From positions 29,140,001 through 29,204,000 of the forward strand of contig NC_043014.1 in assembly GCF_006345805.1 (NCBI RefSeq): a stretch of DNA of 64,000 nt, read 5' to 3'. The position numbers were made by a program, and so were the translations under genes. The stretch comes from Octopus sinensis (Eukaryota). Under the pieces are notes generated by a model. It was not told the origin of the DNA. It searched no databases and was given only the letters and a program-made list of their open reading frames with translations. Position 1 is the first letter of the stretch, and every line of letters starts with the position of its first letter. Positions 10,953 through 56,877 of the stretch are shown here, piece by piece.

Positions 10953-11619
10953 TGAGAGAGAGAGAGAGAGAGCGGAAGAGAAAATATTTTATTAACATGG
11001 ACAAATATAAGTTTATATACACACTTATTAGTATGTATCTGCATACACAAAACATATATGTATGTATGTATGTATGCATGTATGTATGTATGTAGGTATG
11101 TGTGTATGTATATGTATATATATATATATATGTTATATATGTATATTTATAAATGCATGTATATGAATTTATATATGCATACATATATATACATGTGTGT
11201 ATACATATGTGTGTGTGTCCATGTATAAATAGAAACATTTATGTGCGTATATGTATGTATTATATATAAACACGTGCACATACACACCCATATGTATATA
11301 CATGTATGTGTACACAAACACACACACACACACACACACATTATATATATATATATAATATATATATATATATATACGCATGTACATATGAATGCATGCG
11401 TGTGTATATATGTGCGTGTATGCATATGTATATGTATATATGTATGTATATGAGAACCCGGATGAGCCTACGTGACAGCAAGAAACACAAATGGGGTCAG
11501 AGTGATATTAAACTCCTTCATTTACTAAACCACATAAGGAGCGCTATAGAAACAGAGGCAATATTAATGGCGTTGCTCCTGCTTGGCCGTAGCCAGTAGA
11601 CCGCAACAAGTTAAAAGAG

Positions 11620-11665
<46 letters not shown>

Positions 11666-11696
11666 ACTCCATATATGTATATGTATATGTATATAT

Positions 11697-11756
<60 letters not shown>

Positions 11757-12319
11757 TATATATGCATATATATATATACCTACATACACATCCCATATGT
11801 TAACATTGTATATACATATATCTGTTTGTATACTCCAGTCTTCATTGAGTAATTGTTTTTTTTCCTACATTTTAACAGAATATTCATTTGTTATATACAT
11901 GTTTGTATATATATGTTTATATATGTATATATACGTATATATATATATACATACTGAGAGAGAGAGAGAGAGAGCGGAAGAGAAAATATTTTATTAACAT
12001 GGACAAATATAAGTTTATATACACACTTATTAGTATGTATCTGCATACACAACATATATGTATGTCATGTATGTATGCATGTATGTATGTATGTAGGTAT
12101 GTGTGTATGTATATGTATTATATATATATATATGTATATATATGTATATTTATAAATGCATGTATATGAATTTATATATGCATACATATATATACATGTG
12201 GTATACATATGTGTGTGGTGTCATGTATAAATAGAAACATTTATGTGCGTATATGTATGTATTATATATAAACACGTGCACATACACACCCATATGTATA
12301 TACATGTATGTGTACACAA

Positions 12320-12378
<59 letters not shown>

Positions 12379-12623
12379 ATATACGCATGTACATATGATG
12401 CATTTGCGTGTGTATATATGTGCGTGTATGCATATGTATATGTATATATGTATGTATATGAGAACCCGGATGAGCCTACGTGACAGCAAGAAACACAAAT
12501 GGGGTCAGTGATATTAAACTCCTTCATTTACTAAACCACATAAGAGCGCTATAGAAACAGGCAATATTAATGGCGGTGCTCCTGCTTGGCCGTAGCCAGT
12601 AGACCGCAACAAGTTAAAAGAGT

Positions 12624-12665
<42 letters not shown>

Positions 12666-12678
12666 ACTCACATATATG

Positions 12679-12760
<82 letters not shown>

Positions 12761-12950
12761 TATATATGCATATTATAATATACCTACATACACATCCCAT
12801 ACATGTTAAACATTGTATATACATATATTGTTTGTTATACTCCAGTCTTCATTGAGTAATTGTTTTTTTCCTACATTTTAACAGAATATTCATTTGTTAT
12901 ATACATGTTTGTATATATATGTTTATATATGTATATATACGTATATATAT
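10951..12950. repeat. Tandem duplication, ~1.0-kb unit x2
   Basis: ACTG(AG)nCGGAAGAGAAAATATTTTTATTAACATGG at 10951 and 11953; internal unique blocks repeat at 11451/12459 and ~11835/12841. Confidence 0.9.
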
Positions 12951-13083
12951 ATATACATACATACATATATATATGTTTGTATATATATATATATATCTGT
13001 ACGTACGTATGTGTGTACATATATATGTAAGTATATATGTGGTTGCATGTACATATATTTATATCCATACATATATTACATAT

Positions 13084-17432: not shown

Positions 17433-17741
17433 GTTGATTTTTTTTTTACTCTACCATTGTTTTGTTTTCATCCTCAGCTCAAACATCATTGAGCAGGCGT
17501 GTGGTCACTAGCGTTCCAGTCATACCCATCCCGTTTTGTTTGTTAGGGACAATATTGCCAAACGTGTGCTTCACTTTTAAAATTCGCTAGCGTGTGATTT
17601 GAGATAGTTTTAGCTGCTATTTTTTGCAGGTTGAGCATCGTCATTTGTTCATCATTTTATTGTTGTTAGTGCTGTTTTTCTTGTTGTTGCTACTGCTGCT
17701 GGTGGCGGCGGCAGCGATGGTGACGGTAATTTGTCCCATCA

Positions 17742-17973
17742 AGGCGGCGAGCTGGCAGAATGGTTAGCACGCCGGGCGAAATGCGTAGCCGTATTTCGTC
17801 TGCCGTTACGTTCTGAGTTCAAGTTCCGCCGAGGTTGACTTTGTCTTTCATCCTTTCGGGGTCGATTAAATAAGTACCAGTTACGCACTGGGGTCGATAT
17901 AATCGAATTAATCCGTTTGTCTGTCCCTGTTTGTCCTCTCTGTGTTTGGCCCCTTGTGGGTAGTAAAGAAATA
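17742..17973 (+). mobile_element. SINE family B, full length, Tx1-type tail (type i), with 15-bp TSD
   Basis: A box TGGCAGAATGG (17753-17763); B-box-like GAGTTCAAGTTCC; TSD GGTAATTTGTCCCAT (17725-17739) / GGTATTTTGTCCCAT (17974-17988). Confidence 0.9.
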
Positions 17974-20929: not shown

Positions 20930-22920
20930 AAAGCAGTCAGTTCTAAGACTAACTAATGCATTAATGAGGAAAATTTCAGGAAAAATGCCGAATTAGGAGG
21001 ACCCAGGACCAGATTTAGTTCAAGGCTAAAGAAATTTAATAGTTTACCTAGGAGGCTGAGGGAGCAACTTCAGGTTTGTCTTACTGGAGGAATAATACCA
21101 GATTGGATGACTAGAGGAAGGACAGTACTCATTATGAAAGATAAAAGCAAGGGTGATACAGATAGCAACTATAGACCAATCAGTTGCTTACCATTAGTGT
21201 GGAAGCTGTTAACAGGAATACTTTGAGAAAGCATTTACGAGCACCTTGCCAACCAGAATTTACTGCCAGAAGAACAGGAAGGTTGCAGGAAGAAGATTAG
21301 AGGAATGCATGATCTATTATACATAATCAAAACAGTTCTAGATGAAGTAAAAGCTAGAAAGAAAAAAAATCTAACAATAACATGGATACATTATAAGAAA
21401 GCTTATGACATGATCTCACAGTCATGGATAATTAAATGTTTGAGTATATTCAGTATAGCAGATAACGTAAAAGAATTAATTAGCTTTAGCATGAAGAAAT
21501 AGTAAGTAGATATCTACTCAGGTGACACACTCTTAGCGAAAGTTAGAATAAAAATTAACCATCTACTCTACATAAATAATCTGAAGCTTTTTAGTAAGGA
21601 TGAAAAAAAGATACATTCCTTAATACAGACTGTAAGCCTCTTCAGCAAATATATAGGCATGGAATTTGGTATAGATAAGAGTGCAATATTAGTCATGAGA
21701 GGGGGACAGGTAGTCAACAGCGAAGGCATCCAATTACCAGATGACCAGACATTAAAATCATTGAAAGGAGAAAGTTAAAAGTATCTAGGAGTATTAGAAT
21801 CTGACAGAGTACTAACTACAGAAAGGAAAACGAAAATTGAGAAGGAGTACATCAGAAGGGTGAGGAAGCTAATGAAGTCAAAGCTAAGTCGTCCGAATTT
21901 AGTGAAGGCTGTAAATACTTGGGCAATATTATTACTTAAATACTCAGCAGCTAATGTAGATTGGACAAAAATTGAATTAGCAAAGCTAAACAGAAGAACT
22001 AGGAATGAATTCAATGTGAAGGGCAGGAGTAACAAGATTATACTTACCTAGAAAGGAAGGTGAAAGAGGGTTAATAACAGTAGAAGACTGCGTGGAATTA
22101 GCTACAGCAGATATAGACTCCTATGTAGGTAATAGTGAAAAAAGTTGCTAGAGTCACAGCAAGACATAGAGAAACCAAAAACCCAAACGAAGTTAAAAAC
22201 CAGAAAAAAGAACAGAAGTTATCTGACTGGCAGGATAAGGCGTTGCACGGTAGGTTCCCAAAGATCGTTGCAGCAAATAGTAGTAGTGAGACATGTTTAT
22301 GGTTGCAGAAAGGAAACCTGAAAAAGGAGGCCGAAAGTTTGTTAGTAGCTGCATAAGATCAAGCGTTAAAGACTGATTGGATAAAAGCCAAGATAGAGAA
22401 AAACCAAGTAGATTCCCAATGTAGGTTATGCAAATCAAAAGAGGAAATAGTAACTCATATAATAAGTGAATGTCGCATGCTGGTACAGAAAGAATACAAC
22501 AAGAGACATAACAACCTAAGGAGAGTAATCCACTGGGAGTTATGTAGAAAGCTAGGATTTGAATATACTGATAGATTTATGAACATGAACCTAGTAAAGT
22601 ACTAGAAAGTAAGAAATACAAGATGTGAGACTTTAACATTCGGACTGAGAGAGTAATAGAAACTAGAAGCCCCGATTTAGTAGTAGTAGATAAAGAGAGT
22701 AGAAAGTGCCAGATAATTGACTTTAAATCCCAGATGAGGAAAAAAATCAATATTAGGAGTATAGAAAAATAGTAAAGTACCAAGACCTAGCCATTGAATT
22801 ACGGATACTATGGAAAGTGAGGGTAAAATGTATCCCAGTAGTTATAGGTACATTGGGAACTATCCCTAAAGATCTGAACAGGTGGATAGAGGAAATAGGC
22901 AAGCCTAGTTGAAAAAACAG
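20930..22920 (+). mobile_element. Decayed R4/Dong-like non-LTR retrotransposon (RT, CCHC, restriction-like endonuclease), 5'-truncated
   Basis: PDWMTRGRTVLIMKDKSKG..NYRPISCLPLVWKLLTG; YKKAYDMISQSWI; NHLLYINNLKLF (decayed YMDD); CRLCKSKEEIVTHIISEC; KRHNN; RSPDLVVVDKE..C.IID; KYQDLAIEL..LW....IPVVIGTLG. Multiple stops. Confidence 0.85.
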
Positions 22921-22957
22921 GCCGAAGTAACACTCAAAATTTTCTGCGGTAGCCGCA

Positions 22958-24272
22958 GTGGCTACCGAGAACATTGACATCGATGTCAACCAGCTCGTCG
23001 AGCTATTTAAAAGAATGCAAGAGGAGGGTGGTGATGTTAAAATATCACCCTCCGCCAGTATCGTGGAGACCGAGAAGCGGACCGTAGTGTTTAAAACTTT
23101 CTGTCCACAAAGCAGAAGGTTCAAACACTTTGAAAAAAGCACCATCGAGAAATGCCTGTCCCCGATTTGGAAGGACATCGTGTACGTCGCCAGGAGACGG
23201 GCATATGGCACTGTGGATGTCCGCTTCTCGGGGGAAGAAATGGCCCGCGGGCATTCTGTGAACCCCCTAAAAACCAAGGAGGTGGTACTTTTCCCAAGCT
23301 ATAGGGGACGCAGGACGTCCCGGGTCAGGATTGTAGAAGCCCCGCCGGAAGTAGATCCGGTAGAGGTAGTGGCCGCCCTGTTATATAAAAGGGCGGACAA
23401 AATAAAAATACTACAAGTAACATGCTCTACCCCTCGATTTTGGCTCGGGCGTAACATTAATATATTAATTCAAGGAACAGCGGAGGACCTGAGAGGGTGC
23501 TCGTGGGCGAGAACGTAGCCCTCAGGGTACAGGTCGAAGGCCGAAAACCCACCTGTTACGCCTGCGGCAAAAAGGGCCACATTCGTGTAGACTGTCCAGA
23601 CAAGCAAAAGAAACCGCAGACACCAGGCCCCTCAGATAATAAAAAAGTCCCTACCCTTGCAAACACACCTACCCCTACAAAAACAAAAAATCCCACTCCT
23701 GCTGTTACGGTGCCAACCCCAAAACAGACTGAAGAAAAAACCCAGCCCTCGCACTCACAAACCCCTACACTATTAAAACCTCCCACCCCCTAAAAACTGC
23801 GGCGCCTACCGAACAAACTATTGCTACCCCAGACGATACCATGGAGGTATCAGAGGGGGGATTTACACCAGTTCGTAAAAGAATTCGTGCAGCATCCCCG
23901 TCCACATCCCCTACAAAAAATAATAAAAACAAAGATACACCACAGACACGGAAAAAAAAATCCCGCTCAACTGGCCCAGAAAAAGAAGACAAAAAAGAAA
24001 ATGAACTCATATTAATTGAATTCGACACACAAGACAAATACATAAACGATATTGTGGTTCAGCATCAGTCAGCAAGACTGTACAACAAATACAAAGATCG
24101 AAATAGACACGCGTGGATTGCGGAAACAACGTTCAAACAATTAAAAGACAGACACCCAAACGCCATCCGGCATATCGCGAACTTGCCGGACTATCTGAAG
24201 AAAGAGGAGAAAGAAGGGGCCCACAAACGTGTGGTGAGGTCGGCCCCCACCTCTCCAACGAAATGTAAGTAG
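22958..24272 (+). pseudogene. LINE ORF1 (gag-like, zinc knuckle), broken into three frames
   Basis: Segments 22958-23518, 23497-23793 and 23841-24272; CYACGKKGHIRVDC = CX2CX4HX4C; Pro/Thr/Lys-rich tail; homologous to 43160-43653 (LFPSY[RK]GRR). Confidence 0.8.
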
Positions 24273-24289
24273 AACTTTTACTTTTTGTA

Positions 24290-27200
24290 ATGGCTTCGCT
24301 TAACCTTGGTTGTTTAAATGTGCGTGGTCTGAGTTCGAAGTGGAAGCAGGCTTGTTTCCTCGACGACCTCAGATCACATGATATACATGTGATGGTTGCT
24401 ACAGAGACCAAGCTGGACAGCCTACAAACCTTCTCGCCTCTCCTGAATGGCTACGAGAAAATCATGTCTCCTGGCCAGACCGGAGGGCGAGGGGGCGTAG
24501 TGGTACTGATCCGTAAAGACTTGGCTCTACAGACAAGAACAGTCTATGTAGACCCAGAAGGTGGGCTGGTCGTCCTTGATGTGACATACAGCAGTAAGGC
24601 CTTCAGGTTGATCGGACTCTATGTACCTTGTGCTAGAGGTTTCCAAACTGATTTTTATCGGCGCCTAGAGGGCTTTCTCGTGACGTCGAAGACTTTAGTG
24701 ATATTAGGGGACTTTAATGCTATCGTTGACGTACACATCGATAGCGTTGGCTCGATCTATAGGAAAGTGAACTCACGTCTCGTGGATCTGCTTAAGCGGT
24801 TTCAGCTGGCAGATCGTTACAGACTTGACCATCCGAACGTCCCAGAGTGGACCTGGATGAGTGGCGACGGAAGGTTCAAGTCTTATCTAGACAGGATAGT
24901 GATAAGAACTAGAGATAAGTCTAGTTTTAGTTGTCCACAGCTCGTCCAGGTGCCCTATACTGACCATAGAATGGTCACGTGTAGACTGGACATAGATAGC
25001 ACAGCTGAACAAGTCTATTTTGACACGCGAGGCATACCGTAGCCGGATTAAGGTGTTAGTGCAGAGGGCGTTAACCGGAGCCGTGGTTAACAACCGGTGG
25101 TGGTTCACCCTCAAAAGAGCCATTCGATTCGAGTCCATTAGATTTAGTAAACAACTAAGAAGATAGGGCTAGAATAGAAGGCAACTAGTTAAGAACTTAG
25201 AGGAGGCGTTGAGGTTGGGCTCTGCATCTCACATTTTAGCGGCGAGAACGGCATTAGACCGTCACCTCAAAACCAAACATGAGGGATGTAGAGTCCGGGC
25301 TAAAGTACGAGCATTGAGCCGTGAGGGAATTAATGTTGCCGGATGGGCCCGTACGATAGAAACACAGCGTGGAAACGATGCCACAATTGGGTCTCTTGTT
25401 GATGAAAACGGATGCACGATCAAGAAGCGGGACGAGATGTGTGAGGCACTTCACAAGCACTTCGCCGAGTTGTTCGGGAGGTGCGGGACGCTGGATCATG
25501 GTGAGGCCCTTAGGGACTTCCTGTCTGGTGGCCCGCGCCTCTCGACACGAGAGGCTGAGTGCTGTGAAGGGCCAATCACAGCCGAGGAAGTAATCGAGGT
25601 GTTGGGCAAGTGCCCCGGGGAGAAGTCGCCGGGTCTCGATGGTCTGCCCTATGAATTTTATAGAAGTATGCCAGACTTGTTCGGGCACCTGCTGGCTAGC
25701 GTCTACGCCAACTGGCAGCAGAATGGGAGAATTCCCAAGTCTGCGAGCCGGGGGGCGGTGACGTTGATCAGGAAGGACCCGAACAAGGGGGACGAGATAG
25801 GGAACTTCAGGCCCATAACTCTGTTAAACACAGAGTTAAAGATTCTGGCCAAGGTGCTAGCAAAAAGGTTGGCGCGGGTCGTGGACAAACTTGTCGGGGA
25901 AGCGCAAACGTGCGCTATCACCGGCAGAACGATCCACGACAATCTCCACCTTATACGCTACTCCTTAGAGAGGGTGGGGAAGCTTTCTGGCGCAGGGGGA
26001 GCACTGGTACATTTAGACCAGTCCAAAGCATTTGATAGGGTCGACCATAGGTACCTGGCGGCGGTCCTCGGAGAGGCTGGCCTAGGCCCGACCTTTCGAG
26101 GTTGGATCGCTGCTTTGTATAGCGACATTGAGTCTGTAGTCAAGGTGAACGGTTCCTTTTCGAAGCCGTTCAGGATCGAGCGTTCAGTTCGTCAAGGGTG
26201 TCCCCTGTCCTCGCTCCTATACGTATTGGCTCTTGAGCCTTTGCTGCGGAAGTTGGAGGCACTAGGGGGCGCGCCGCATGATCTATGGTGTGGAAGAGGA
26301 GCTACGCGCGTATGCGGATGACACCTCCATCATCGTGGCAGACGAAGGCCAGCTTCCAGTGGTGGAAGAGGCCATCAAAAGCTACGAGGCGGTGGCAGGA
26401 GCAAAGGTTAACAAGGACAAGTCGGTCGGTTTGCAACTCGGCACCTGGAGGGGCAAGCCGATGCCGTCCAATAACGTCGTAGGGCGTTGGACGGAAGGTC
26501 CTGTTAAGCTGCTCGGAGTCTGGTTCGGGCCAGACCTCCAGATTGAGAAAAATTGGAGTGAGGTGGCCAACAAGGTGACCACTCTAACCCAGACCTGGTC
26601 TGGGCGGGCGTTATCCCTGCTAGGGAAGGCGGGGGTGGTGCAGATGTTTATAGCATCAGTAATCAGCTACCGTCTGACCGTGGTGCCTTGCCCCGATTTG
26701 TGGCTGAACAAGTTGGAGAGAATCCTTTTCCAATTTTTGTGGAAAGGAGGAAAGCCACTTGTAAAGCGCTCTGTCTGCTGCCAGAAACCGCTAAAGGGTG
26801 GGCTAGGGATGCCTTGGCTGAGGATGCGAAAACTCGCGTTAAGGTTGAGGCAACTCTGGCTTTACCTGGATGGAGAGCAGGTGTGGTCACCGCACGTCCG
26901 GTTCTACCTTCCCCAGTTAACATCCCTAACGGACATCGGTGCATGGATCAAGCGGAGACCTAAACTGAGTGAATGGCATTTGGAGTGCCGTCAGGCGCTC
27001 CAGCTACTATCTCGGGTGGGCAACGCCGGCAACAGGAGTTCCACCACGGATTTCTATAGCGGGTTAGTGGAGATTAAGTCCGAAGACGCCTTGGGGGAGA
27101 CCCTGGGCTACGATGAAAATCAGTTGGTCAACCTGTTCCGGAGGACGTTCGGGCCGGGGTATCTGGATAATTACCAGAAATCCCTGGCCTGGCAGTGTTT

Positions 27201-27663
27201 CCGTGCGGCTTTACCTGTTCGCGACAAGCTGTCAAGGCTCGGTAGTGCCGTCTCGCCGACATACCCGCGATGTGAGCAGGATAGGGAGACCGTCTTGCAC
27301 GCATTCGTGGAGTGTCCGGAGTTATCGGGACTGATAGCTTTTGTTGAACAACTGTTGTCAGTGATGGGAAGAGTACAGCTATCAGCTGAGTCTATCATCG
27401 AGACTGTGCCGCCCCCTTTCCTTAACAGGGAAAGAAAGGCTTGTTTTTTCTGTGTTGTAGCCATACTGAAAGAAACAGTATGGAAGACGCGTACGAAAGG
27501 TATAGTGACAGGCACCTTTGTCTCCGGCCAGGGGTTGATTAACTTTTTTAGTTACCACCTCAGTCGCAAAATCAGGCTGGAGAAGAGGTGTCTGTCACGA
27601 GATATGTTTGCGAAAAGATGGAAGCCTGTGGCATACAAGATGGGTATGTTTGGCACCAGGTAA
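24290..27663 (+). pseudogene. LINE ORF2: APE endonuclease, reverse transcriptase and C-terminal Cys/His motif; at least 3 frame disruptions
   Basis: LNVRGL, ETK, GDFN, SYLDRI, TDH (APE); KSPGLDG, NFRPITLLN, DQSKAFDRV, RQGCPLS, YADD at 26311 (RT); YPRC..ETVLHAFVEC. The GYW of the GYWKLN motif is deleted near 25003. Confidence 0.92.
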
Positions 27664-27890
27664 GTGTGACCGGATCAGAAAGTAAAGGTTCTACCGGATG
27701 GCTGGGTGTCCGTCCTTCGACACGATCATTATATTTTTAAACATTGCCTTCGTAAAATTCATTGTTTATAATCTTATCCGTAATTTCATTCGAAAATTGT
27801 AACTGTGTTAAGCTACTTCACCCTTTATATTTGTCTGTCCTTGTTTGTCCCCTCTTTGTAAATGCCTAAATGGCAAATTATATGAAATAA

Positions 27891-28250
27891 AGTAGCTTGC
27901 TTACCAACCACATGGTTCCGGGTTCAGTCCCACTGCGTGGCATCTTGGGCAAGTGTCTTCTGCTATAGCACCTGGCCGACCAATGCCTTGTGAGTGGATT
28001 TGGTAGACGGAAACTGAAAGAAGCCTGTCGTATATATGTATGTGTTTGTGTGTCTGCGTTTGTCCTCCTAGCATTGCTTGACAACCGATGCTGGTGTGTT
28101 TAGGTCCCCGTCACTTAGCGGTTCGGCAAAAAGAGACCGATAGAATAAGTACTGGGCTTACAAAGAATAAGTCTCGGGGTCGATTTGCTCGACTAAAGGC
28201 GGTGCTCCAGCATGGCCGCAGTCAAAATGACTGAAACAAGTAGAAAAAAA
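27891..28250 (+). mobile_element. SINE family A lacking its first ~23 nt, abutting the LINE 3' end
   Basis: Begins AGTAGCTTGCTTACCAACC; otherwise near-identical to the young copies. Confidence 0.9.
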
Positions 28251-28504
28251 ATCTATAAGTATAAATTTGTATATCTTAATAAACATTGTGTTTATGATAT
28301 TGTTGTGATAACAGACTAGATTGACATTACAGCGAGAAAATGTTCATTCTGATGTCTTATTACGGATGCAGTAACTTGTCTTTGCGGTTGTCAATTAAGC
28401 AACTGCGTCTTCATCCACGTTGACACGTTGTATTTGAGTCCTTTCTCGAAGTTCTCCCTGGTGATTTCTCCACTATTGTTAAAGTTATTTTGTCCAGCCT
28501 CTTC

Positions 28505-32098: not shown

Positions 32099-32102
32099 TT
32101 AA

Positions 32103-32320
32103 AGGGGTGAGCTGGCAGAATCGAAAACACGCCAGTCAAAGTGCTTAGCGGCATTTCGTCCGTCTTTACGTTTTGCATTTAACTTCTACTAAGGTCGACT
32201 TTGCCTTTCATCCTTTCTGGGTCGATAAAATAAGTACCAGTTGCGTACTGGGGTTGACGTATTCGGCTCAACCGCCTACCCTCAAATTACTGACCTTGTG
32301 CCAAAATTTGAAACCATTAT
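32103..32320 (+). mobile_element. SINE family B, tail type iii (duplicate at ~33420-33640)
   Basis: GGTGAGCTGGCAGAATCG head; tail CCTTGTGCCAAAATTTGAAACC. Confidence 0.85.
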
Positions 32321-33911
32321 AATGACGTCGTTTAGGCGTTTTTCGTTTGGTGATGCATTTTTCGGAACGTGTGCAAGGTACTACTCTGTGTGTGTATTTG
32401 TGTGTGTGTGTGTATATATGTTTGTGTTTGTGTTTGTCCCCCTAACATCGCTTGACAACCGATGCTGGTGTGTTTACGTTCCAGTAACTTAGCGGTTCAG
32501 CAATGAGACCGATAGAATAAGTACTAGGCTTACAAAGAATAAGTCATGGGGACGATTTGCTCGACTAAAGGCGGTGCTCCAGCATGGCCACAGTCACATG
32601 ACTGAAATAAGTAAAAGAGTAAAAGAGTAATAGAGTTTCTCCAAGTTTGCGGAAATTATGAATTAGTTCAATGAGCACGATTTTAACTGGGAGCACATAT
32701 CCAAGGTAAAGACAAACGTCTGAATCCTGCTATCACGGGTTCTTGCTGAGACTTAAGAAAATTCAAACGACATTAGATGTATATAGTCGAAAAGTAACTG
32801 ACATGCCAGGAAGAACTAAAGCTTGGATCCTCTCCCTGGATTTAGCATATACCATCTGTAGTAGGTTTGTGATCGAGAATTAAATTTGATTGGTTTGATC
32901 TATTTAATAATATCTTAATAACTTACTCTTCTACTTCATCGTGACTTTCGATCCCACACTATGCAAGTTTATCTAAAGCTATCAAGTACATGGATGGTGT
33001 GAAAGCGAATTTTTATGATGTTCTTTTTTTCGTTTCATTTTGTTTTGTTTTTTTTGTGTTGTTTTGTTTTTGTTTTTTGTTTTGTTTTTTTTGTCATTTA
33101 ATGGTTTTTATTAAATTTTCTCTATTTGAAATGTTTTGAAAAATAATCTGGTCATTTCTGTACCTATATTTTTGTCATTATACTGACCTGCTTAAACCTT
33201 TAGTGTTCAGATTACTCTGTTAAATGTAATACTTTTTCACTCAAATTGTTTTGAATAATCATGCATTATCTTATAGCTTTGAGGTTTCAGTGATGTGATT
33301 GTTCATTTTCAGAATGGCATTGTAGGTTAGGTGTGAGAGGTTAGATATGGCCAGCTTGAATATAAAACATATAGAATATATTGGCCAGATTTGGCCGGTT
33401 TAAACACTAAGGTGGTTAAAGGGGTGAGCTGGCAGAATCGAAAACACGCCAGTCAAAGTGCTTAGCGGCATTTCGTCCGTCTTTACGTTTTGCATTTAAC
33501 TTCTACTAAGGTCGACTTTGCCTTTCATCCTTTCTGGGTCGATAAAATAAGTACCAGTTGCGTACTGGGGTTGACGTATTCGGCTCAACCGCCTACCCTC
33601 AAATTACTGACCTTGTGCCAAAATTTGAAACCATTATAATGACGTCGTTTAGCGTTGTTTCGTTTAGTGATGCATTTTTCGGAACGTGTGCAAGGTACTA
33701 CTCTGTGTGTGTATTTGTGTGTGTGTGTGTATGTTAGTCTATATGCATAAGTGTATGTATGTGTGTTAGTCTATATTCATAAGTGTATGTATGTGTGTTA
33801 GTCTATATGCATAAGTGTGTGTATGTGTGTAAGTGTATATGTATGAATGCATATATAGAAAGGGCGAGATAGGAAGATAACAGATTTACCCTGCCATATT
33901 TCGCTCTGTCT

Positions 33912-42596: not shown

Positions 42597-43140
42597 GGAC
42601 GGCGAGCTGGCAGAACCTTAGCACACCAGGTAAAATGCTTACTGGCATTTCGTCCGTCTTCACGTTCTGAGTTCAAATTCCGCCGAGGTCGACTTTGCTC
42701 TCCTCCTTTTGGGGTCGATAAATTAAGTATCATCGAAATACTGGGGTCGACGTAATCGACATAACACGTCGACAAGAAATTGCTGGCGTTGTGCGAAAAT
42801 TTGAAATTGCGTGATGTGCTGGTAGAATCGTTAGAGCGTTGGATAAAATGCTTAGCGGAATTTCTTTCGATTGTCTGTTTTGCGTTCAAATCCCACCGAA
42901 GTCGACTTCGTTTTTCATCCTTAAGGCGGCAAGCTGGCAGAATCATTAGCACACCGGACGAAATGCTTAGTGGTATTTCTTCTGGCACTACATTCTGAGT
43001 TCAAATTCCACCGAGATCAACTCTGCCTTTCATCTTTTCGGGTGGATAAATTAAGTACCAATTGAGTATTGGGGTCGATATAATCGACTTAACTTCTTTC
43101 AGGCCTTGTGCCTATAGTAGAAAGGATTATTGTTATCATT
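42597..43140 (+). mobile_element. Three head-to-tail SINE-B copies
   Basis: Heads near 42597, 42815 and 42924. Confidence 0.8.
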
Positions 43141-46100: not shown

Positions 46101-47020
46101 TAGAGTGTCTTCAAGCGCTCACAGCCCTTGGCCAGTCAGGCAATGCGGCCGGTGTAAGTTCCACCTTGGAGTTCTGTAGGGGTTTAGTGGAGGGCAAGAG
46201 CGACGACGTCGAGAGGGATCAATCAACTGGCTGGTCTCTTCCAGAGGACCTTCGGAACAGGAACTATGGATAACTTCCAGAAATCCTTGGCCTGGCGGTG
46301 CTACCGAGGGTGCTGTCAGAAAGGTGTGCAGTCAGTCGGGCTTGTCCGAGATGCACATGGAGTAATGAAACCGTTCTGCATGCCCTCGTGCTGTGTCTGC
46401 CCATTGCTGACTTGTGGAGCTTTGTCGAAAAGTTATTGTCATGTATAGGATGGATCCGGCTATCGTCTGAGTCCATCGTGAAGATTGCCCTGCCCCCTTC
46501 CTTTGGTCGGGAAGAGAGAGCAATTATTCTCTGACTGGTTGCTATAGCAAAAGAGGTTGTGAGATAGACGCGATTGAAAGGGTTGACGCGATTGAAAGAG
46601 TTGAAGGAAGGTACATTCCTCTTTGGCCAAGGTCTCATTGACTTATTCAGGTTCCCTGCTGAAAAGGGAAGTGAAGCTGGAGAGGGAGGTACTGTCACCC
46701 AGTAAGTTCGTTGAAAGGTGGGTGAATGTGACAAGAATGGCCCTCGTGAATGGGCCTGCTCTAAGTGTGCGCCTGTAGGCCAGATGGAAGGGATAAATGA
46801 AGATGCCTTCCCGAGGAGCCATTGGTGTTAAGGGGTCCAAAGTGCGTCAGGTCCCTTTGGTCACCTTACGATGGAACCCCCCCCCTACTGGAGAAGCATA
46901 TTGTTGATTTGATCTCTTTGTTAATCGTGGTGTTTGTTGACTGTTTACACGTTTAACCTCACCTCTGTGTATGGTCATCCATGTTTTGTGTTCGGCTCTA
47001 GTGGCCAATAACGAAAGAAT
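43160..47020 (+). mobile_element. Second, divergent Tx1/L1-clade LINE; most of the APE domain deleted; many stops and frameshifts
   Basis: ORF1 remnant 43160-43653; RSYLDRV at ~44056; PGYWKLN; RSPGLDG; NFRPVTLLNTDYKILAK; RKGCPLSPLLY; YTDD; CPRC..ETVLHALVLC; ends before (TTA)n. Confidence 0.9.
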
Positions 47021-47024
47021 TATA

Positions 47025-47028
47025 ATTG

Positions 47029-47067
<39 letters not shown>

Positions 47068-47158
47068 TATTATTATTATTGTTATTATTATTATTATTAT
47101 TATTATTGTTATATTATTATCATTATTATTATTATTATTATTATTGTTATTATTATTA

Positions 47159-47189
<31 letters not shown>

Positions 47190-47234
47190 TTATTATTATT
47201 ATTATTATTATTATTGTTGTTATTATTATTATTA

Positions 47235-47288
<54 letters not shown>
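47025..47288. repeat. (TTA)n microsatellite
   Basis: Directly visible. Confidence 0.95.
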
Positions 47289-47289
<1 letters not shown>

Positions 47290-48433
47290 GGCAGAGAGCT
47301 AACAGAATCATTAGCACACCGGGCAAAATGTTTACTGGCATGTCGTCCGTCTTACGTTCTGAGTTCTAATTCTGCTGAGGTCGACTTTGCTTTTCATCAT
47401 CTGGATTGATAAATTAAGTAGCTGTTGAACGCTGGATGTAAATGACAAGCACTCTCCCCGAAAATGTCCGGCCTTGTGCGTCTAATAGAAAGGTGTATTA
47501 TTGTTGTTGTTTTTGTGGCTATGGCAGAAGAGGCTGTGTAATGGACTCGTCTGAAAGGTTTGAAAACATGTAGTTTGCTATCTGGCCAAACATCTCATAA
47601 CTTTCTTCAAATATCATTTGAAGAGGAAAGCAAGGGTAGAGAAGGAGTAGCTGCATTCTAGTGTATTTGTCAAAAGATGTACGAGGGTGGTAAGATAGGT
47701 GAGACTGAATGGGTCTACTCAGAGCAGGGTTTTCCAGGTAGGAGGAAAGAAACTGGATGATGACACTTCACGTGCTTTAGAAATGGCAGAGTAATCCGAG
47801 ATTTTGAGTGGGGTTATCCAGAACTAAGTAGTCTACTCGATATTGGGGATTCTAATTTTTAATTATTTATTTTTCTAATTTCTGTTTATATATTCTTTTG
47901 TTGTATCCTTTAATATCGTAGTGTCTCCCCTTGATCTATGTAAACTCCACTTGTTTTGTATGTTGAAATTTGTCCTTTGATATTGTCCTGCATGGATTAG
48001 GCCCTTGTGGCCAATAAAAGAAATCGTCATTTCGTCCGTCTTTACGTTCTGAGTTCAAATACTGCCGGGATCGACTTTGCCTTTTATTCTTTCGGGTCGA
48101 TAAAATAAGTACCTGTTGAGCACTGTGATCGACGTAATCGACTTACCCCTCCGCAAACATGCTGCCCTTATGCCAAAATTTGAAATCATTATTATCATTG
48201 TTTTTACTATTAAGGCGGTGAGATGGCAGAATCATTAACACGCCGGTCAAAATGAATAGTGGCATTTCATCCATCTTTAATATATGAGGTTGACTTTGCC
48301 TTTCATTCTTTCGGGGTCGATAAATTAAGTACCAATTAAGAAACACTGGGGTCGATGTAATCGACTAGGCCTCTCCCGCATTTCAAATCTTGTGCCTTTA
48401 GTAGAAAGGATTACTATTATATTATTATTATTA

Positions 48434-48474
<41 letters not shown>

Positions 48475-49038
48475 GTTCTATTAAGGCGGTGAGCTGGCAG
48501 AATCGTTAGCATGCCGACAAAATGCTTAGTGGAATTTCATCGTCTCAATTAGCTTTTCATCTTTTCGAGGCCGATTGAAATAAGTACTGTTGCGCAATAG
48601 GGTCGATGTAATCGACTAACCATCTCCCTCCAAACCTCAGGCCTTATACTCTTCAGTAATAACACTTTACCTTTCATCCTTCCGGGTCGATGAATTAAGT
48701 ACCAGCGAAACATGGGGGTCGATGTAATCGACTAGTCCCCTCACCCCAAATTCAGGCCTTGTGCTAAAGTAAAAAGGATATTATTATTATTAATTATTAT
48801 TATTATATATTATTATTATTATATTATTATTATTAGTTCTATTAAGCGGTGAGCTGGCAGAATCGTTAGCATGCCGGACAAAATGCTTAGTGGAATTTCA
48901 TTCGTCTCTAATTAGCTTTTCATCTTTTCGGGGCCGATGAAATAAGTACCTGTTGCGCAATAGGGTCGATGTAATCGACTAGTCCCCTCACCCCAAATTT
49001 CAGGCCTTGTGCCTAAAGTAAAAAGGATTTTATTATTA

Positions 49039-49100
<62 letters not shown>

Positions 49101-49409
49101 GTTCTATTAAGGCGGTGAGCTGGCAGAATCGTTAGCATGCCGGACAAAATGCTTAGTGGAATTTCATTCGTCTCTAATTAGCTTTTCATCTTTTCGAGGC
49201 CGATGAAATAAGTACCTGTTGCGCAATAGGGTCGATGTAATCGACTAACCATCTCCCTCCAAACCTCAGGCCTTATACTCTTCAGTAATAACACTTTACC
49301 TTTCATCCTTTCCGGGTCGATGAATTAAGTACCAGCGAAACATGGGGGTCGATGTAATCGACTAGTCCCCTCACCCCAAATTTCAGGCCTTGTGCCTAAA
49401 GTAAAAAGG

Positions 49410-49486
<77 letters not shown>

Positions 49487-49945
49487 GGAAGGTGGTGAGC
49501 TGACAGAACAGTTAGCAAGCCGAGCAAAATGTTTAGCGAAATTTTTTTTTCCGTTTTCACGTTCTGAGTTCAAATTCTGCTAAGGTCAACTTTGCCTTTC
49601 ATCCCTTTGGGGGCGATAAAATAAGTACCGGTTGAGTATCGGGATCGATGGAATACACTTACACCCTCTCCACGAAATAGCTGGTCTTGTGCCAAAATTT
49701 GAAACCAATATTACTAGCACTAAGGCGGTGAGCTGGAAGAGTCATTAGCACGACCGGCAAAATGTTTACCGGCATTTTGTCGTCCGCCTTTACGTTCTGA
49801 GTTCAAATTCCACCGAGGTTCACTTTGCCTTTCATCCTTTCGGAGTCGATAAAATAAGTACCAGTTGAGCACTGGGGTTGATGTAATTGATTTAACCCGT
49901 CATCCTGAAATTACTGGCCCTGAGCCAAAGTTTGAAACGTATATT
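47289..49945 (+). mobile_element. Dense co-oriented SINE-B array separated by (TTA)n, including a triplicated unit (48475-48779, 48836-49027, 49101-49410)
   Basis: About ten heads or central modules, all on +. Confidence 0.88.
47514..48024 (+). mobile_element. Third Tx1/L1 copy, 5'-truncated (ORF2 C-terminus plus 3' UTR)
   Basis: VAMAEEAV*WTRLKGLKT..LLSGQ..LITFFKYHLKRKARVEKE aligns with VAILKETVWKTRTKG...SGQGLINFFSYHLSRKIRLEKR of copy 1; ends GGCCCTTGTGGCCAATAAAAGAAAT. Confidence 0.8.
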
Positions 49946-54274: not shown

Positions 54275-54714
54275 TGATATAGATCCTGTTGAATTAGATA
54301 CTTAAGCTGAAGCACCAAATCTGTCCATTATTTTCCGATTATATATATATATATATACACAAATATGTATGTATGTATTTATATGTACATCTATATATAT
54401 TATTATATACCGATGTATATAATAATATATGCATATATATATCTATAAACGTATAAACATACATATATGCATGTATATGCGTATGTTTTTCCTTCTATGT
54501 GCTTTTGTGGGTGTGTACGTAGGTGTGTGTGGCTGTCTGTGTGCCAGTGCTTGCGCGCGCGCGTGTGAGTGAGTGTGTGTTGTCCGAATCAAGACCTTGA
54601 AAGAGGTAAAATATTAATGCTAATATGCATATATGTATCGGCATACGTCCATGTAAACACGGAAGGGCACGCATACACACACACACACGCACACATACAT
54701 ACACACATACACAC

Positions 54715-55070
54715 GTCTGTCTTTATGTTCTGAGTTCAAATTCGGCCGAGGTCGACTTTGTGTTTCATCCTTTCGGGGTCAATTAAATAAGTACCGGCAC
54801 TGGTGTTGATATAATCGATTTAATCCGTTTGTCTGTCCCTGCTTGTCCCCTCTGTGTGCAGCCCCTTGTGGGCAGTAAAGAAATAAGAAACGTTAGCACG
54901 CCGGTATTTCGTCTGTCTTTATGTTCTGAGTTCAAATTCCGCCGAGGTCGTCTTTGCCTTTCATCGTTTCCGGGTCGATAAATTATGTACCAGTTGCGTA
55001 CTGTGGTCGATCTAATCGACTGGCCCCCACCCCCAAAATTTCGAGCCTTGTGCCTAGAGTAGGAAAGGAT
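54715..55070 (+). mobile_element. Two tandem 5'-truncated SINE-B copies (tail i then tail ii)
   Basis: First ends GCCCCTTGTGGGCAGTAAAGAAATA; second ends GCCTTGTGCCTAGAGTAGGAAAGGAT. Confidence 0.85.
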
Positions 55071-56483
55071 ATATGTATGGAATATCCTAGAGAGGTTGAC
55101 ACCAAACTTTGTCATACCAGCACCTGAACTGCTGGTCACTGCATTGTTCCAAATGTCCCACCCATCCCGTCAAGTGTGATGACCATGTACTGCAATAGAT
55201 TGGGATTCAAATGTCCACAGCTATCTAATGTCTTGGCAAAACATCTGAAAAATCTACATGGATTAAGGGTAAATCTGAAAAAAACTTGACGTTCTGCTGT
55301 CCAAGCCCCAAGATTACATCAGGGCAAGAATCTAAAAAAAGGGATAGCAATTTCGAATAACCACTTTCACCAAAATGCAATCACAATAAAATGGTCATTG
55401 AAAAAGTGATAATACTGACGGTTGTCACACCACAACATTTGGGGTAGAAGAGAAACGCCTATATATACATTATAGGGTGTGTGGTATGGGTGGGTGTGGG
55501 GTGCGCGGGTGCGTATATATATATATAGAATATATATATATATATTATATATATATACATATATATATACATATATTATATGTGTATGTATATATCTATA
55601 TCTAGATATATCTAGATATCTATATATATATAACTATATATCTTTTTTCCCGTACTTCTCTATCAACATAACTATCTTAGAAACTAACTAACTTCAATTT
55701 TTTTTTTTTTTTTATAAGCTTTTGACTTTAGTTTTCTTAGTTTGTAATTTTAAGTTCAAATTTTAAATTTTTATTTTCAGTTTTAATTTTCAATTTTAGG
55801 TTTTAATTCTTAATCCTTTATCTCATATTATTTAATACCTATGAAGCTTCAAATAACAATTTTAAAAATCTGCAGTAAACTATTGAGCTTATAACCTTAC
55901 CCAGATTGGCCTTCCACCCCAAATCTACCGAAACATTAATGCTTAACCCCAAACTCCCATACAATATTGACATATCTAAATCGTTACCTTTACTTTCCTT
56001 TATTTATTTTTTATCTTATTATTCTTTACCTCTATCTCATTTTATTCTTATTCCCTTTCTCCTCTCCCGTACACACTCACTCACAAAATCCATTTACGAT
56101 ACTTCGTCATTACCTCATCTTTTATTTTCATTATTATTTTTTATTCTAAATTTCATTATTTTTATTTCTATTTTATTCTTATTTTCCCTTTTATCACTAT
56201 CTTATTTTCTAATCCTTTCTCTCTTATCTTTCTCTCACTCCTCTCCCTCTCTCTCTCTCTCTTTTTCATACACCCACTCACAAAACCCATTCATGTCCAT
56301 CATACTTCCTCGCTCTATATACACATTTACAATATAAATACGTCATTCACAACACTGCCAAAATGTCGCCTGGATTTACATCGGATTTTAACTAAAAACC
56401 TGTACCTTCATGGAAATACCGACCGACTTTCATATCCTCTGGAAAAAGTTGAGTTGCGAAGATTACTCTCCTGCCTATATTCT

Positions 56484-56621: not shown

Positions 56622-56858
56622 GTTTCTTTATTACCCACAAGGGACTAAACATAGAGGGGACAAACAAGGACAGACAAACGGATTAAGTCGATTACATCGA
56701 CCCCCAGTGCTGGTACTTAACTGGTACTTAATTTATCGACCCCGAAAGGATGAAAGGCAAAGTCGACCTTGGCGGAATTTGAACTCGGGACGTAACGACA
56801 GACGAAATACGGTTACGCATTTCGTCCGGCGTGCTAACGTTTCTGCCAGCTCGCCGCC
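56622..56858 (-). mobile_element. SINE family B, full length, Tx1-type tail
   Basis: Reverse-complement head GGCGGCGAGCTGGCAGAAACGTTAGC; tail contains the exact 26-mer of the LINE 3' UTR. Confidence 0.9.
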
Positions 56859-56877
56859 ATATATATATATAAAACAC

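Follow-up and report, generated by a model that had tools for sequence, protein, structure and literature searches.

Retroelements of the window and their terminal hairpins

A 64,000-nucleotide (nt) stretch of the Octopus sinensis genome (NCBI RefSeq assembly GCF_006345805.1, contig NC_043014.1, positions 29,140,001 to 29,204,000 of the forward strand), hereafter the window, was analyzed for a short hairpin that recurs at the 3′ ends of its long and short interspersed nuclear elements (LINEs and SINEs). Three LINE ends of the L1 clade lie in the window, along with a SINE-A family and 22 matches to a second SINE, SINE-B; both SINE names come from a preliminary description of this DNA. L1-Tx1 LINEs and tRNA-SINEs have been described as abundant in octopuses (PMC13282606, PMC8967140). 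The elements and their hairpins are as follows.

22931 to 27891, + strand: LINE1, an L1-clade (Tx1-like) retrotransposon
27863 to 27875, + strand: LINE1 terminal hairpin, TGCC-TAAAT-GGCA
27876 to 27891, + strand: LINE1 A-rich end, 16 nt, without poly(A)
27892 to 28252, + strand: SINE-A copy, entered at the fixed head site that is the target of the LINE1 family
43174 (5′ end approximate) to 47021, + strand: LINE2, an L1-clade element, older and decayed, flanked on both sides by (TTA)n-type repeats
46994 to 47006, + strand: LINE2 terminal hairpin, GGCT-CTAGT-GGCC, in a decayed copy; followed by a AATAAAGAAAGAA-type end and then (TTA)n
47520 to 48024, + strand: LINE3, the 5′-truncated 3′ end of a third family
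48000 to 48012, + strand: LINE3 terminal hairpin, GGCC-CTTGT-GGCC, followed by AATAAAAGAAAT
17741 to 17973, + strand: SINE-B with tail i; hairpin GCCC-CTTGT-GGGT at 17949 to 17961
54714 to 54885, + strand: SINE-B with tail i; hairpin GCCC-CTTGT-GGGC at 54861 to 54873
56623 to 56859, − strand: SINE-B with tail i; hairpin at 56633 to 56645, absent from the list in the preliminary description
43101 to 43113, + strand: SINE-B tail ii hairpin, AGGC-CTTGT-GCCT
49002 to 49014, + strand: SINE-B tail ii hairpin
49385 to 49397, + strand: SINE-B tail ii hairpin, AGGC-CTTGT-GCCT
49682 to 49694, + strand: SINE-B tail iii hairpin, TGGT-CTTGT-GCCA, in a decayed copy

The preliminary description had cited seven 13-mers, each with a 4-bp stem and a 5-nt loop, and every one was found on the + strand where it had been placed and pairs as claimed. 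That format turned out to be the mode and not the rule, since stems range from 3 to 6 bp and loops from 4 to 6 nt. Its SINE sites were likewise correct, but intact copies had been picked: all four pairs were intact, by eye, in 9 of the 21 tailed SINE-B copies of the window, and the remaining copies carry scattered changes, as expected of dead copies. The hairpin had also been set about 10 to 15 nt upstream of an A-rich end, which did not hold; the A-rich stretch begins directly after the stem, and it is the element that ends, 11 to 16 nt past it.

LINE1 has a broken open reading frame 1 (ORF1) with a CCHC knuckle and a frameshifted ORF2 with APE, RT, and zf-RVT domains. Its family is young, the top copies being 98 to 99% identical, and LINE3 groups with LINE2 in a tree of ORF2. 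The ORF2 domains PF03372, PF00078, and PF13966 correspond to an APE endonuclease, a reverse transcriptase, and a C-terminal zinc knuckle, and ORF2 matched the human L1 ORF2 protein (ORF2p) with an E value of 3e−66, compared with 4e−23 for R2. On these features the LINEs are assigned to the L1 clade in the broad sense. Membership of the Tx1 clade is suggested by their preference for multicopy targets and not by phylogeny; the label used here is Tx1-like. The matches of the homologue searches included no named Tx1 reference, and among named proteins the best homologue of the reverse transcriptase of these LINEs came from Argonauta (64%). Metagenomes yielded 48 distant loci whose best segments were mostly 21 to 36% identical. 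A plausible 3′ end was read in about three of the 11 inspected, and one relative (L308) has a poly(A) end with an AU-rich inverted repeat before AATAAA. The sequence that follows another distant L1-clade element on a metagenome contig (L333:4893-5163) presumably resembles 5S rRNA.

To sample LINE ends across the 2.72-Gb genome, a Pfam zf-RVT search was run, which gave 24,043 candidates, 150 of them scored, together with two single-protein searches (150 matches each) and DNA searches with LINE1, LINE2, and LINE3 (30 loci each). Ninety loci returned by the protein searches, 80 stretches chosen for diversity, 20 arbitrary 10-kb stretches, and the loci from the DNA searches provided 239 ORF2 ends. 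Ends were anchored on an upstream TCTATGT-like word and on AATAAA; these anchors were picked after the data had been seen, and pairing was not used. Twenty copies without a readable end were dropped, and LINE2 and LINE3 contribute 24 of 30 ends each. This left 60 distinct end types, including three with spurious anchors that stay in the main counts. Members with an intact ORF2 encode 1,126 to 1,145 amino acids. Many Tx1-like copies lie in head-to-tail arrays with a spacing of about 3.5 to 5.8 kb (contigs C9, C3, C6, C25, and C28), and several of these array copies carry an intact ORF2 of about 1,130 amino acids.

Stem letters vary widely among the 60 end types. Among the stems are GCCC/GGGT, GCCC/GGGC, GGCC/GGCC, AGCC/GGCT, GCCT/AGGT, GCCA/TGGC, TGCC/GGCA, CGCC/GGCG, ACCT/AGGT, TCCT/AGGA, TACCT/AGGTA, AACCT/AGGTT, ATCC/GGAT, GATT/AATC, AATT/AATT, GATC/GATC, and AAAATC/GATTTT. 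The last letter of the loop is nearly always T, and the loop CTTGT is common to several LINE families and to all three SINE tails, which hints at cross-recognition. In the LINE1 family (30 loci), TGCC-TAAAT-GGCA is followed by 16 A-rich bases, and a sister subfamily has CGCC-TTAAT-GGCG, a compensatory change. The LINE3 majority is GGCC-CTTGT-GGCC and the LINE2 majority GGCC-CTGGT-GGCC (30 loci each); the LINE2 hairpin first described is thus present, but its CTAGT loop and G.U pair are decay of that copy. The tail iii hairpin is likewise real, although the copy cited is decayed from a family majority of TGGC-CTTGT-GCCA. Most LINE types have AATAAA 0 to 3 nt past the stem; in the LINE1 group it falls within 11 nt of it. 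A relation to the histone mRNA stem-loop, which has a sequence-conserved 6-bp stem and a 4-nt loop, was considered and rejected, as the stem letters vary freely, most stems have 4 bp, and no Rfam match was obtained.

The terminal hairpin is selected for pairing on the sense strand

To evaluate pairing against chance, the terminal 26 nt of the 60 end types were compared with five upstream segments of the same untranslated regions. Stems with at least 4 Watson-Crick pairs were present in 34 of 60 terminal segments and in 8 to 24% of upstream ones, and stems with at least 3 pairs in 52 of 60 compared with 27 to 69%. When G.U was allowed, 55 of 60 terminal segments had at least 4 pairs (upstream, 32 to 62%), and a hairpin of −1 kcal/mol or lower was found in 50 of 60 (upstream, 7 to 13%). 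When the final 18 nt of 56 types were shuffled over 300 rounds, stems appeared in at most 21%, compared with 54% observed. Joining left and right halves across types gave a mean of 8.8 to 11.3 stems, whereas 31 were observed, a number reached in 0 of 20,000 permutations.

Shared ancestry was removed by taking neighbors in the ORF2 tree as 30 disjoint pairs and swapping arms within each pair. The true arms paired better in 21 pairs, worse in 2, and equally in 7 (p = 3e−5); without the three spurious ends, the result was 17 to 2 with 9 ties (p = 4e−4). The same test in seven upstream control segments gave 8 to 16 better against 10 to 18 worse. Stems of at least 4 bp, G.U included, were present in 55 of 60 sense segments and 38 of 60 antisense segments.

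The SINE tails, which are noncoding, also keep the hairpin and display the same behavior. In tail iii, two amplified haplotypes are found genome-wide, TGGC/GCCA with a G-C pair (4,653 matches) and TGCC/GGCA with a C-G pair (428 observed, 46 expected under independence), while the mismatched intermediates total 122 (84 G.G and, by subtraction, 38 C.C). This tail iii change counts as a single compensatory event, its intermediates being at the level of decay. The outer pairs of tails i and ii were counted by hand. Among the first 100 listed of 59,682 genome matches to one tail i pattern, there were 72 G.U, 24 G-C, 1 A-U, 0 A.C, and 3 other pairs; the first 100 listed of 15,815 tail ii matches had 56 G.U, 35 A-U, 2 G-C, 0 A.C, and 7 others. 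Some of the A-U pairs may reflect CpG decay. The excess of sense over antisense stems and the types of SINE outer pair point to folding of the sense RNA and not of DNA.

Several observations weigh against selected pairing or against its being read by the LINE enzyme. No consensus structure was predicted by RNAalifold from a structure-blind MAFFT alignment of 54 ends; its fixed columns were 60.6% paired compared with 51.5% after shuffling (best at zero slide), the covariation score of these columns was matched by 3 of 500 shuffles, and pair-type measures did not exceed the shuffle. This weak result is attributed to insertions and deletions in loop and spacer that shift the register. The stem of a young family of 30 copies, whose ORF2s are long and open, is AGCC/GGCC with an A.C outer pair; several end types reach only 3 pairs, and the stability of some AU-rich stems is marginal, at about −1 to +1 kcal/mol. 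Folded in a 65-nt context, the hairpin had a pairing probability of 0.04 in one tail i copy of the window and 0.3 to 0.4 in its tail iii copy. Many of the 60 end types are single copies, and the tail iii swap counts as a single evolutionary event. In addition, nearly every LINE type has AATAAA after the stem, the position expected of a processing signal, an observation that is partly circular given its use as an anchor.

The preliminary description had cautioned that pairing in such short stems must be told apart from chance. Pairing by chance among short words that are GC-rich or palindromic (GGCC, GATC, AATT), combined with shared ancestry, or a DNA inverted repeat with no role in RNA, would fit the frequency of four-base stems (at least 4 pairs in 32 to 62% of upstream segments when G.U is allowed), the several stems that are palindromic 4-mers and also direct repeats, and the lack of an RNAalifold consensus. 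However, the phylogenetically independent swap test at 21 to 2 largely refutes this explanation, the non-palindromic stems GATT/AATC, ACCT/AGGT, TGCC/GGCA, and ATCC/GGAT follow the inverted rule, and amplified SINE variants tolerate G.U and not A.C. We regard it as highly improbable. Terminal segments exceeded upstream segments, arm permutations, and swaps between tree neighbors, so that the earlier caution is largely answered, and the proposed covariation was upheld in the swap, permutation, and SINE haplotype tests while being weaker on the structure-blind alignment. Together, these data demonstrate that the hairpin of LINEs and SINE tails is a real RNA element, covarying and selected for pairing on the sense strand.

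Copy ends, insertion targets, and SINE-B tails

Poly(A), scored as a run of 10 A, was found in 0 of 184 copies and in 0 of 30 LINE2 and 0 of 30 LINE3 loci. In families with mixed flanks, conservation ceases 11 to 12 nt past the stem, and the LINE1 junction lies 16 nt past it. The same GTAG site adjoins 29 of 29 readable LINE1 ends (30 loci), and two 5′-truncated copies (L013 and L026) have duplications of about 14 bp. Multicopy targets were the SINE-A head, matched at one position by 32 of 34 LINE1 cluster members and again in 7 of 7 copies, (TTA)n (27 of 30 in the L206 family), and (TC)n (2 of 2).

The LINE1 family and its sister family (L001-L030 and L273-L292) use one fixed site in the SINE-A head and are thus LINEs that target a SINE. 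The (TC)n after L284 and L300 and the (TTA)n after L206-L234 are reminiscent of microsatellite-targeting Tx1 groups. At L111:2228-2391, one Tx1-like copy abuts a complete U1 snRNA gene, which scored 125 bits in Rfam, and three close relatives of it have a different flank. In a related clade (L107, L237, L240, L241, L247, L250, L253, L254, L290, and L092), copies are followed by a recurring 3′ flank with a short inverted repeat of its own (AGACCTT..AAGGTCT type); it may be a repeat or another element's 5′ end, perhaps the target of this clade.

In 1.24 Mb, 185 SINE-B tails were collected: 43 of type i, 39 of type ii, 42 of type iii, and 61 unclassified. The alignment of tail i to LINE ends scored 66 (shuffled maximum, 34) and firmly supports tail i as homologous to LINE 3′ ends and derived from them. 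Its upstream part is nearest the L107/L238 group, and its hairpin is that of the L092 and L167 groups; because these resemblances are split among LINE groups, no single partner is named. The hexamer of tail i is AGTAAA in 24 of 43 copies and AATAAA in 14.

Tails ii and iii retain the hairpin without AATAAA. Their scores against 57 sampled LINE ends, 30 and 28, were not significant (shuffled maximum, 32), the best alignments fell off the terminal register, and no LINE among the 239 copies ends in tail ii or tail iii. The SINE body precedes all 24 tail iii pattern loci listed. A (TTA)n context is commoner for tails ii and iii than for tail i, both downstream (33 of 81 compared with 3 of 43, p = 5e−5) and upstream (17 of 38 compared with 4 of 25, p = 0.03), and LINE2, LINE3, and the L206 family share it. 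Both tails also have GAAA 10 nt past the loop, as do LINE2 and tail i. The common hairpin, its spacing, and the (TTA)n insertion preference point to a link between tails ii and iii and the Tx1-like LINEs, which we do not consider firm. The tie between SINE-B and these LINEs that was first proposed for all tails is therefore borne out for tail i by homology but not, by alignment, for tails ii and iii.

Mobilization by a LINE of another clade, with a hairpin inherited from an older tail or arisen by convergence, would account for the alignment scores of tails ii and iii and for their greater age (15% and 24% mismatch compared with 9% for tail i). It leaves unexplained that they bear the same CTTGT loop, the same GAAA, and the same (TTA)n surroundings as the Tx1-like elements, and we judge it rather unlikely for these two tails. 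One specific partner, an R4/Dong-like LINE, was considered and not supported: the single such end read (L075) finishes in (TAA)n, with no match to the tails and no such hairpin by eye.

Other features of the SINEs and of the window were recorded. Fifteen of 43 tail i copies are followed by another SINE-B that starts from inside its head, giving tandem chains of about 185 bp; the SINE-B at 54714 to 54885 is followed by such a copy (54886 to 55072), and the chains can also be seen among the genome-wide tail i matches. The tail iii motif recurs every 115 bp in several arrays (G000:C1:41262843-41263904 and neighbors), as a SINE-derived tandem repeat. Box-like words were recognized in SINE-B by eye against the box consensus, and ARAGORN and Rfam reported no tRNA in the window. 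SINE-A and SINE-B have a common body segment (GAT..AATAAGTAC...GGGGTCGAT...CGACT), which suggests module exchange. A decayed LINE at about 21000 to 22930, which we take to be R4/Dong-like from its motifs, is truncated near its 3′ end by LINE1; L075, which finishes in (TAA)n, is a relative. Near-identical local duplications of about 1.0 and 1.3 kb (10973 to 11954 with 11975 to 12960, and 32102 to 32400 with 33419 to 33732) are possibly tandem duplications or an assembly artifact.

A candidate reader of the hairpin and related systems

The probable reader, judged by analogy with related enzymes, is ORF2p, which would bind the stem, thread the A-rich spacer to its active site, and so select the template and set the first base copied. 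ORF2p would dock on the stem by its shape and not its sequence, because the stems span GCCC/GGGU to AAUU/AAUU. The short A-rich stretch would then take the place of a poly(A) tract in the active site, and DNA synthesis would start at the nicked target at a fixed distance from the stem. With the same hairpin, SINE-B would borrow this machinery; for tails ii and iii, the families used are likely those that insert in (TTA)n (LINE2, LINE3, and the L206 group). The LINE AATAAA may separately act as a polyadenylation signal. Precedents are the zebrafish ZfL2 ORF2p, reported to bind its own 3′ stem-loop with pairing mattering more than stem sequence (PMC4176376), and human L1 ORF2p, described as holding a stem beside a 15-nt A tract and as starting at heterogeneous sites when the stem is unpaired (PMC10830416).

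The hexamer next to the stem raises another explanation, in which the hairpin is a 3′-processing signal that presents AATAAA to the host cleavage and polyadenylation machinery or fixes the RNA 3′ end and ORF2p is not the reader. The position of AATAAA in the LINE types and the hexamers of tail i would agree with it. Yet tails ii and iii keep the hairpin with no hexamer, poly(A) was on no genomic copy, and copies end about 5 nt past the hexamer, short of the usual cleavage distance of 10 to 30 nt. Moreover, SINEs headed by A and B boxes would be expected to be transcribed by RNA polymerase III. We consider a processing signal unlikely.

Covariation reveals selection on structure and not the identity of the reader, which might instead be ORF1p or a host protein, or the hairpin might protect the end of the RNA from decay, with template choice by ORF2p being relaxed. 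Human L1 ORF2p, the closest solved relative, is indeed of the relaxed type. Against such a reader, the fixed distance of 11 to 16 nt to a junction without poly(A) links the hairpin to where reverse transcription begins, and capture of a tail by a SINE has been presented as the hallmark of a tail that the LINE enzyme recognizes (PMC3472496). This alternative appears quite improbable to us, and recognition by ORF2p is retained as the preferred reading.

By analogy, the hairpin may function as the stringent 3′ stem-loops do in L2-clade LINEs and in one lineage of monocot L1. Two features of the stringent type were found, namely the homology between SINE tail i and LINE ends and a terminal stem-loop kept by compensatory changes. 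The long stem of UnaL2 type, with a bulged base and a mismatch hinge, was not found; octopus stems have no conserved extension. The poly(A)-primed relaxed L1 type is at odds with copies that lack poly(A). The analogy to eel UnaL2 drawn in the preliminary description thus applies to position and role but not to shape, the octopus stem being far shorter with no conserved bulge seen.

That a 3′ stem-loop can be common to a LINE and a SINE is already known from other clades. Eel UnaL2/UnaSINE and zebrafish ZfL2-1/2 are described with such a 3′-terminal stem-loop, in which letters are exchangeable and pairing is needed (PMC1636434, PMC4176376). These elements belong to the L2 clade and, unlike the octopus hairpin, have a longer stem, in which a bulge and a mismatch are required, and a family-specific loop, whereas the CUUGU loop here is common to several families and three SINE tails. 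Their binding and transposition were reported from experiment; the octopus hairpin is described here from sequence.

Within the L1 clade, 3′ ends common to LINEs and SINEs have been described for the monocot LINE1-1_ZM with ZmSINE2/3 and sorghum SINEs, where the hairpin shows compensatory changes (PMC3472496), and for Chlamydomonas L1-1_CR and SINEX-3_CR (PMC3472496, PMC3747384). These plant and algal cases resemble the octopus hairpin in variable stem letters, compensatory changes, and conserved loop or flank letters, and their function, as described, was also drawn from sequence. In contrast to them, the octopus elements are Tx1-like and target specific, with a much smaller hairpin and about 60 end types, and their genomic copies lack the poly(A) ends with which the plant and algal L1s are described.

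Human L1 ORF2p with an Alu-like template likewise combines a stem with about 15 nt of single-stranded A-rich RNA and definition of the start site, but it is described as the relaxed type, in which poly(A) is needed, the stem is long, and no tail is common with Alu (PMC10830416). Crocodilian SINEU is also a SINE for which Tx1 mobilization (Tx1-Mar) was proposed from a common target preference, and Tx1 families in the same 2015 report by Kojima insert in other repeats and microsatellites; for SINEU, that report describes poly(A), no LINE with its 3′ end, and no hairpin (PMC4494074). A tentative extension, which we consider possible but doubtful, is that these LINEs keep an initiation code of the L1 clade without poly(A): a minimal hairpin, independent of sequence, with an A-rich ruler of 11 to 16 nt would be the genome-encoded counterpart of the human ORF2p template of a stem plus 15 A, and many families with different targets would read one shape, so that a SINE could ride several of them and change sites by swapping its tail.

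No report of such a hairpin for animal Tx1-like LINEs was found in the literature searched; Repbase, SINEBase, Dfam, or supplementary files could record a match of the tails. Of 58 pairs in a 2012 survey, three involved SINEs with L1 tails, found in plants and algae (PMC3472496); the word octopus is absent from the main text of a 2013 review, and the partners reported for mollusc SINEs are CR1, CR1-Zenon, L2, and Nimb (PMC4824008, PMC11481361). The finding bears on the questions of how enzymes of the L1 clade select their RNA and whether a stringent ancestor gave rise to the relaxed, poly(A)-driven mode seen in human L1. These elements offer about 60 hairpin variants from nature, intact ORF2 in some members, a captured SINE tail, and no poly(A), and are a ready panel of natural compensatory mutants; recognition of the hairpin by ORF2p would point to the probable driver of a SINE that is among the most abundant in octopuses.

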